NCBI RefSeq assembly: GCF_041886205.1
Contig: NZ_CP169029.1
Length of the DNA: 64,000 bases
Reading direction: 5' to 3' (one strand)
DNA from: Escherichia coli
GTDB taxonomy: Bacteria; Pseudomonadota; Gammaproteobacteria; Enterobacterales; Enterobacteriaceae
A program made the translations under genes and the position numbers. Numbering within the stretch: position 1 is the stretch's first letter; each line of letters opens with the position of its first letter. Positions 20,344-39,426 of this stretch are shown here, in pieces. The notes below the pieces were generated by a model, which was given only the letters and a program-made list of their open reading frames with translations, was not told the DNA's origin and ran no database searches.

Positions 20344-20685
20344 TGGAATGATCTCCTCGAAAATTTATTTACATTACTGGTAAATCGTTAACATGTGTTA
20401 ATTCAGCATATTATATCATAACAGGAAAAATCTCGTCTATTAGAAATAAAAATATTCTAAAGCCATAATCTTATATTTAATTTTATAAAAACTTATATTG
20501 TTGGCGGGATTTTTTATAATTGTGTTTTGAAAGCATACTTGCTTTTAATATGTGGAAATCATTAAGACGATAATAAAACTCGTATCCGCCCAAGGAAGCA
20601 AACAGCCCACGATTATTGCAGGCTATTTGCCAGGTGTCTTACTTACTCCTTCACATCTATTTCTGATAAGAAGGTTCAGAACTTA

Positions 20686-37883: not shown

Positions 37884-38534
37884 TCAATGAGACATCATTT
37901 CCTCGACCACTTCTTCGCTACTCAACTGATATGGATAAAACGTTGGCCAGTTTTCCATTTCATTTAATAAAGATTGCTGTGAATCATTACCCATAAAAAT
38001 GTGAAAATGAGATGATTTTCGTGGTGCAATTATATGATCGCTAAATTGTATATATTTAGGGGCTTTGCTTTTAGGATCTTTACATTCGAATAAGTAACGA
38101 ACGCCTTTCTTACCTGATTTGTAAGTGAGTATTTTGTATCCATCGTAATCATATTTACAGGATGTTGTTTCATTATTTCTATGGAATTCAACAATGCCGT
38201 CCTCAATGCCAATCATCTCGATATCTGTCGCATAACCTTTGTGATAATAATCTTTAATTTCAGCAAATGTTTTGGTTTTATCTGCATCCGCTTTCTTCTG
38301 AAAGACGGGGCCAAGTTTGCCACTTTGCAGTAAAGGATAAACGGATTGCCAGACTCCATCCCAGTCACTGAGCGTTCGGTTTTGTACATTGGCATCATCA
38401 AAAACACCATTAGCAGCTTTTTGTTCGACCTCTGTTAAGGGTTTGCCGTGTGAGTGATGACCATGCGAAAAGGCAGGAGCGCTAACAATAAAGACACCTA
38501 AAGCAACAGCCAGTTTGTGAAGACGAATCGCCAA
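37884..38534 (-). CDS. zinT: Periplasmic zinc/cadmium-binding protein ZinT
   Basis: Signal peptide then HGHHSHG metal-binding stretch; probable TTG start 7 nt after GGAGG; Zur box upstream. Confidence 0.88.
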
Positions 38535-38564
38535 AACAGTTTCCTCCAGAGTCATTGTATATGA

Positions 38565-38590
38565 TGTGTAATGTTATATTGTAACATATG
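38565..38590 (-). promoter_or_regulatory. Zur box in the zinT promoter
   Basis: GTGTAATGTTATATTGTAACATAT, a palindrome close to the Zur consensus. Confidence 0.6.
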
Positions 38591-38725
38591 ACAAAATGCA
38601 ACAACTCTTAGGAGATGAGAGCATAGTTTTCTCAGGTGTATTTATCTATCTTATTGAAATAAAATGAATTATGTTGATAATTTGAGGTTGATGACAAACG
38701 AAACATAACCTGATGTGATCTGCGC

Positions 38726-38758
38726 AGGCCGGACAGGGCGCTCGCGCCGCATCCGGCA
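38726..38758. repeat. REP (repetitive extragenic palindrome) element
   Basis: GCCGGACAGGGCGCTCGCGCCGCATCCGGC, typical REP sequence. Confidence 0.7.
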
Positions 38759-38790
38759 GGGATAACGCGTACTTTGTCGGCAATATGAAG

Positions 38791-39426
38791 TTATACAGAT
38801 AATTTGTTGTGAACCTGCTTGCGTAACCGGTTAAAAAGGGAACGCAACTTCTTATACCGTAAGGCTAAAAGCAGTACAGCCAGCCCAGCGTAGATGAGCG
38901 GCTGCGGTGAAATAATCTTCACTGACCACAGATAATGTATTGGGGCCAGGATCGCGACAAGATAGACGAAATTATGCAACTGTTGCCAGTGCTTGCCGAG
39001 TTTTCGCTGCATCGCCTGGGTTGAAGTAAACGCTAAAGCAAGCAAAATAACCCAGCTGATAATTCCTAACGTTAAATAAGGCCGGGTAATTAACTCCTTG
39101 CCTAATAACGCCAGATTATTCACGCCCAGCTCCAGCAATGCGTAACTGGTTAAATGCAGTGTCGCCCAGGCAAAGCACCATAAGCCTAACAGGCGGCGAG
39201 TGCGTATCAATAACGGCTGTTTTGCGTAGCGTGCCAGAGGTGTGATTAACAAGGTCGCCAGCAAAAATTTCAGTGCAGTGCGACCGGTAAAATGCTGAAT
39301 ATCTTTCACCGGATCGGCACCCAGTCCACCGTGATTGATCGCCCAGACCAGCCAGAGAAACGGCAACAATCCGGCAAGATGCAGGCAAACTTTCAGCCAT
39401 GTCACCTGTTTTGCTGTCAGACGCAT
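38791..39426 (-). CDS. msrQ: Methionine sulfoxide reductase heme-binding subunit MsrQ (YedZ)
   Basis: 211-aa membrane protein directly downstream of msrP. Confidence 0.9.

Follow-up and report, generated by a model that had tools for sequence, protein, structure and literature searches.

In Escherichia coli K-12, Zur binds the zinT promoter (PzinT) and protects about 30 bp of it, with an apparent Kd of 0.053e-18 M^2 (Gilston et al. 2014, PMC4219657). Two dimers bind cooperatively, at an affinity that is among the two highest of the regulon, and zinT is repressed about 984-fold by Zur in vivo (PMC4219657). PzinT and PL31p bind Zur approximately 100-fold more tightly than PznuC and PpliG, and repression at the former pair is several-hundred-fold as compared with about 7-fold at the latter (PMC4219657). 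Counted from the transcription start, the zinT Zur box covers -23 to -4 according to Velasco et al. 2018 (PMC5916954); this is a secondary statement, and no primary paper that directly gives the zinT transcription start turned up in the literature searched. As far as the reference list of Gilston et al. goes, ZinT is named there as a periplasmic zinc-recruitment partner of ZnuABC (PMC4219657).

The start codon of zinT is of a rare type: of the genes of E. coli, only about 3% start with TTG (Hecht et al., bioRxiv 10.1101/063800). The primer zinT18_up of Gilston et al. starts at nucleotide 18 counting from the TTG (PMC4219657), and the literature searched for an experimentally mapped zinT start codon or precursor N-terminus gave nothing direct or specific. 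The N-terminus of mature ZinT is uninformative about the start codon, since the signal peptide is removed. The TTG start (RefSeq), the signal peptide (K-12 annotation) and the Zur operator (primary literature) of zinT are all already known.

The segment studied here, positions 38534–38590 of a 64-kb stretch of E. coli DNA (the window, meaning the whole stretch analysed), contains the usual 5' control sequences of E. coli zinT, those of K-12 in another strain. The best explanation of its layout, held with high confidence, is that of an ordinary Zur-controlled zinT 5' region in which a TTG start codon is served by a Shine-Dalgarno (SD) sequence and an ATG further upstream is non-functional. The features of the locus are the following:

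37884–38534, minus strand: zinT (yodA) coding sequence, 216 codons plus stop counted from the TTG; the 651-nt RefSeq/PGAP CDS maps to 38534.
38466–38534, minus strand: region coding for a predicted Sec-type signal peptide of 23 residues, cleaved before HGHHSHG.
38532–38534, minus strand: TTG initiation codon, annotated as the start in each of the 9 E. coli records examined and invariant in an 8-strain alignment.
38543–38547, minus strand: Shine-Dalgarno sequence GGAGG, with an 8-nt spacer to the TTG, invariant in E. coli (8-strain alignment).
38553–38555, minus strand: upstream ATG, polymorphic and without SD, in frame and 7 codons (21 nt) 5' of the TTG; not the start.
38567–38586, no strand assigned: Zur box of 20 bp for two Zur dimers, reading TGTTACAATATAACATTACA on the minus strand, an exact match to TGWNAYRWTATAWYRTNWCA.
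38571–38587, no strand assigned: 17-bp palindrome ATGTTA-N5-TAACAT (ATGTTAcaataTAACAT) from the inverted-repeat search, the one pointed out in the sequence-only reading.
38573–38578, minus strand: candidate -10 element TATAAC, read by eye, inside the Zur box.
38596–38601, minus strand: candidate -35 element TTGCAT, read by eye, invariant in 8 E. coli strains.
38727–38792, plus strand: GC-rich REP-like element in the msrQ-zinT spacer.

A 1-kb query taken from the window matched 5,417 of 5,426 complete E. coli genomes, with 99.9% identity for the best match, and the feature under this match is annotated as zinT, "metal-binding protein ZinT", with msrQ upstream and yodB downstream. Reading of the sequence placed the zinT (yodA) CDS on the minus strand from 38534 to a stop at 37884; the open reading frame listing ran the same frame from the upstream ATG, giving 223 aa. 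The product scored 281.3 bits with the Pfam model PF09223 (ZinT; cut-off 27) and 428.4 bits with the NCBIfam equivalog NF007639 (cut-off 300). It was about 98% identical to solved E. coli YodA/ZinT structures such as PDB 1S7D; the full-length alignment to 1S7D contained four substitutions, none of them within HGHHSHG or SSHFHIFMG, and both the His-rich mature N-terminus HGHHSHG and the HFH metal-site region were intact. Judged by these family matches, the window protein is a ZinT/YodA, a periplasmic metal-binding lipocalin-like protein.

In the msrQ-zinT spacer, where the REP-like element lies, an Rfam search returned a sub-threshold hit to naRNA4, a REP-derived RNA (30.5 bits vs. a gathering score of 59.5, E = 0.009). 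No terminator hairpin was found in this spacer by an inverted-repeat search at the settings used.

The TTG at 38534–38532 is in frame with zinT and is followed by GCG ATT CGT CTT CAC AAA CTG. The GGAGG in front of it was predicted to pair with the 3' end of 16S rRNA at -9.3 kcal/mol, which ranks in the top 1% of random window 20-mers (0.95% of 6,000 such 20-mers reached -9 or better), and the initiation region was not strongly folded (z = +1.19). This agrees with the sequence-only reading, which had proposed that zinT uses a TTG behind a strong ribosome binding site, and RefSeq also starts the gene at the TTG. In K-12 (b1973, NP_416482.1), as in the PGAP annotation of eight further E. coli genomes, the zinT CDS is 651 nt long and begins at the equivalent of 38534; comparison with the curated N-terminus, the check suggested by that reading, thus returned a 216-aa product started at the TTG in all nine, and no curated ATG start was found. 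The sequence deposited for PDB 1S7D as full-length comprises 216 aa beginning MAIRLYK; the TTG-initiated product of the window begins MAIRLHK and agrees with this full-length YodA/ZinT. Taken as a UUG start, the codon has an SD at 8-nt spacing, an NTG counterpart in the orthologues and no conserved alternative start beside it. The codon just before the TTG (GTT or ATT) was also considered as a start and rejected, since it varies among species (GTT, ATT, ACG, GCT, ACC, ACT).

The opposite assignment, in which the ATG at 38555 would be the true start in the window strain and the TTG an internal Leu codon, is extremely improbable. It would take the first ATG of the open frame and the longest canonical ORF, and GenBank as well as the Logan gene calls contain 223-aa entries; however, PGAP gives the TTG even in the genomes SFE8, STEC379 and A35, which carry the ATG allele, and a GGAGG inside the CDS 8 nt before a conserved NTG would have to be a coincidence. 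The 20 nt preceding the ATG (AACATTACACATCATATACA) gave an anti-SD duplex of +2.7 kcal/mol, that is, the ATG has no Shine-Dalgarno sequence. Furthermore, the ATG is missing from more than half of the E. coli genomes and from other genera, whereas an NTG at 38534 is universal. The TTG at 38534 is therefore supported as the zinT start by four independent lines: curated annotation, polymorphism, cross-species conservation and protein logic. We infer that it is used exclusively in the window strain.

The next relevant codon upstream of the ATG is an in-frame TAA stop at 38576. The ATG allele differs from the K-12 sequence by two SNPs, CAATGAC in the window vs. CATTAAC in K-12, where the in-frame codon is TTA. 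In the 8-strain alignment TTA occupied the position in K-12, Nissle 1917, ECONIH1, Ec042T5 and O177:H21, and GGAGG and TTG were invariant. A census by allele-specific 46-mer megablast searches, in which every match contains the codon because any 28-nt seed word of the 46-mer must span it, found ATG in 2,470 and TTA in 2,855 of the 5,426 complete E. coli genomes, together 5,325 of about 5,416 with a zinT locus. With such a split among E. coli genomes the ATG cannot be a conserved start. E. albertii has no ATG at this position, so the ATG looks derived, and on these comparisons it is probably a derived polymorphism. It is a strain-specific polymorphism and not a functional start.

The remark in the sequence-only reading that the first ATG merely adds seven residues with no ribosome binding site was also borne out. 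The extension, MTLEETV, adds two Glu residues, changes the charge of the n-region from +2 to 0 and lengthens it from 7 to 14 residues; it lies outside the NCBIfam profile, the ZinT equivalog alignment beginning at residue 11 of the 223-aa form. GenBank holds both 216-aa and 223-aa versions of exactly this ZinT, the latter being found also among the Logan gene calls, and the 223-aa entries are an annotation inconsistency produced by the upstream ATG.

An intermediate explanation is dual initiation in the strains with the ATG allele, by which most ribosomes would start at the TTG and a minor share at the AUG, giving some 223-aa precursor with the acidic extension. The two codons are in frame with no stop between them, the ATG probably lies inside the mRNA, about 8 nt from the 5' end deduced from the box position of -23 to -4 (PMC5916954), and AUG is intrinsically stronger than UUG, the three canonical starts ranging over 10-100% of AUG (Hecht et al., bioRxiv 10.1101/063800); the 223-aa form is, moreover, annotated in some GenBank submissions. 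Against this, the AUG would have to work with no SD (+2.7 kcal/mol), from a leader of about 8 nt which would be too short for canonical 30S binding, and it would not be 5'-terminal as leaderless initiation needs. The extension also cancels the positive charge of the signal-peptide n-region, and 2,855 E. coli genomes, like E. albertii, lack the ATG. Dual initiation is thus considered improbable, and initiation at the TTG remains the preferred reading.

The signal peptide of the TTG form was judged by its features: an n-region MAIRLHK of net charge +2, a 12-residue hydrophobic core with a mean Kyte-Doolittle hydropathy of 2.64, and AFS before His24. The mature chains in the PDB, such as 1OEE (193 aa), start at His24, right after AFS. 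On features alone the TTG form would have a textbook Sec signal peptide for periplasmic export, as expected in the sequence-only reading.

A Zur-like palindrome about 30 nt upstream of the TTG had been noted as well, and a Zur motif scan proposed. The 20-bp box ends 32 nt and the 17-bp palindrome 36 nt before the TTG, and in the whole 64 kb of the window no 20-mer but the one at 38586–38567 matched the pattern TGWNAYRWTATAWYRTNWCA exactly; shuffled sequences gave 0.18 matches even with up to two mismatches. The pattern is structure-based and was taken from Gilston et al. 2014 (PMC4219657), who derived it partly from the K-12 zinT operator, so that the exact match amounts to identity with a known operator and the test is partly circular. 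The match includes the RNNNYRNNRYNNYRNNNY skeleton of the two-dimer motif, and the operator core is identical in the window and K-12. The palindrome at 38571–38587 is the zinT operator already known to bind Zur.

The classical 23-bp Zur consensus GAAATGTTATANTATAACATTTC (GAAATGTTATA-N-TATAACATTTC) gave no match in the window at up to three mismatches. It misses the zinT site because the latter has four mismatches to it, three in the flanks and one in the core (C for T), and for this reason the structure-based pattern of PMC4219657 was used instead. These four mismatches to the older consensus, and the fact that the boxes of the Fur family are all AT-rich inverted repeats, might suggest that the palindrome is a Fur-type box or mere AT-rich promoter sequence rather than a Zur operator. 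However, the structure-based Zur match is exact and includes the central TATA, which discriminates Zur from Fur sites according to Gilston et al. (PMC4219657); the core is identical to that of K-12 PzinT, for which Zur binding and the approximately 984-fold repression have been measured (PMC4219657); and the 17-mer is conserved 5' of zinT in 53 of 54 species, whereas its flanks are not. A site other than a Zur operator can be given almost no probability.

Another place in the window, 20409–20423 on the minus strand (TGTTATGATATAATA), matched an ad hoc half-Zur pattern (TGTTAYNNTATAACA) with one mismatch. It fails the published 20-mer pattern and was rejected as a chance match. The stretch around it is AT-rich and promoter-like, and the site probably represents an extended -10 element (TGATATAAT), not a Zur site.

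The promoter elements read by eye, TTGCAT and TATAAC, are separated by 17 nt, and a TTG-N3 element is found at the place equivalent to the candidate -35 in other genera. A sigma-70 consensus scan of the window did not call the zinT promoter, since the candidate -35 TTGCAT fits the consensus at only three of six positions. A box at -23 to -4 (PMC5916954) would put the transcription start near 38563, so that the leader would measure about 29 nt up to the TTG and about 8 nt up to the ATG. From this literature-implied start, TATAAC would fall at -15 to -10, slightly further upstream than usual.

The regulation and translation of the gene would then proceed as follows. Under zinc sufficiency two Zn-loaded Zur dimers would occupy the 20-bp box at 38586–38567, which overlaps the putative -10 region just upstream of the transcription start, and RNA polymerase would be blocked; the location of the -10 candidate inside the box suggests that Zur represses by occluding the promoter. 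Under zinc shortage Zur would leave the DNA and an mRNA with a short leader, about 29 nt by the published box position, would be made. GGAGG would recruit the 30S subunit, with initiation at the TTG 8 nt downstream to give a 216-aa precursor, from which the 23-residue Sec signal peptide would be cleaved, exposing the His-rich mature N-terminus HGHHSHG. The mature ZinT is expected to act as a periplasmic zinc-binding protein aiding ZnuABC-mediated zinc uptake.

A degenerate-pattern scan with one genome per species provided 54 Enterobacterales zinT loci from at least 12 genera. The codon served by a GAGG-type SD was NTG in 54 of 54 loci (TTG 34, ATG 15, GTG 5, CTG 0), a figure that is partly by construction because the codon was picked by SD proximity in eight of them; by alignment alone it was NTG in 46 of 46. 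Bases 2 and 3 of this codon were invariant across the 54 loci, and a first base of T, A or G with invariant second and third bases is the substitution pattern expected of an initiation codon. The GAGG core at -12 to -8 was conserved between species. A 17-mer with up to three mismatches to ATGTTATANTATAACAT lay 28–39 nt before the start in 53 of the 54 loci, and the leader around it carried almost no information. On this sequence comparison the whole layout of Zur box, short leader, GAGG and NTG is conserved.

Two observations concern individual loci. Both Salmonella subspecies loci have a GTG directly after the TTG, and the exact start is ambiguous there. The locus CP089930.1, deposited as "Escherichia coli strain E69" (L100), encodes a ZinT only 70% identical to that of E. 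coli, with an ATG start and a different leader; either it was deposited under the wrong organism or this is not the orthologous locus.

The TTG accounts for 63% of the species-level loci (34 of 54), from Escherichia to Pectobacterium and across several families, with a leader diverged beyond alignment. It was retained in Escherichia, Salmonella, Citrobacter, Enterobacter, Lelliottia, Serratia, Pantoea, Kosakonia, Erwinia and Pectobacterium. That the TTG of zinT has been kept through selection rather than inertia seems doubtful on this comparison. Positions -1 and -2 were about as conserved as the first base of the start codon in the 54 loci, and several clades have changed to ATG without obvious consequence; given these two facts and the phylogenetic relatedness of the loci, the selection reading is not decisive. 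Were it true, a weak start combined with a strong SD could cap ZinT output from what is among the most strongly derepressed Zur promoters; other effects of the TTG could be to hold leaky expression at a negligible level when zinc is sufficient, or to render translation IF3-sensitive.

In E. coli B379 (NZ_CP090456.1; locus L005, positions 1553–2903) an IS3-family element lies exactly between the zinT SD and the TTG, with a 5-bp CTGTT duplication. By its terminal repeat we take this element to be IS2-like. The insertion parts zinT from the Zur-controlled promoter and the ribosome binding site, and probably makes this strain a natural zinT knock-down; PGAP still calls the gene from the TTG.

The significance of these results goes little beyond annotation hygiene, the retention of TTG across species being a mild curiosity. 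About 46% of the complete E. coli genomes carry the lineage-specific ATG, and some pipelines or submitters deposit a 223-aa ZinT, which is a pitfall in annotation: expression constructs or signal-peptide predictions made from such entries would include the spurious acidic extension.

The closest known system is K-12 zinT (yodA, b1973; NP_416482.1; UniProt ZinT; PDB 1S7D, 1OEE), which has the same gene context as the window, msrP-msrQ-zinT-yodB, and the same TTG start, GGAGG and Zur-box core, with a protein about 98% identical. The window ZinT differs from that of K-12 in four residues (H6 for Y, G75 for D, K153 for E and F199 for Y), and a few SNPs are found just upstream of the Zur box. The window comes from an E. 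coli strain other than K-12, its best matches, at 99.9% identity, being swine and poultry isolates. The E. coli Zur operators described by Gilston et al. 2014 share with the window the 20-bp two-dimer site, the RNNNYRNNRYNNYRNNNY skeleton and the central TATA; they overlap the promoter core, as the window box would with its candidate -10.

The zinT orthologues of Salmonella, Citrobacter, Enterobacter, Serratia, Pantoea and Pectobacterium share the E. coli layout: a Zur box, about 30–36 nt, a GAGG-type SD, 7–9 nt, the TTG, and a signal peptide before an HGHH-type motif. An ATG occupies the equivalent place in Klebsiella/Raoultella, Cedecea-like strains, Buttiauxella, Franconibacter and Siccibacter, and a GTG in a few (Citrobacter sedlakii, one Serratia and Kluyvera). 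The upstream ATG of E. coli is found at the same position in none of these orthologues, save for one coincidental case in Serratia marcescens 106R.
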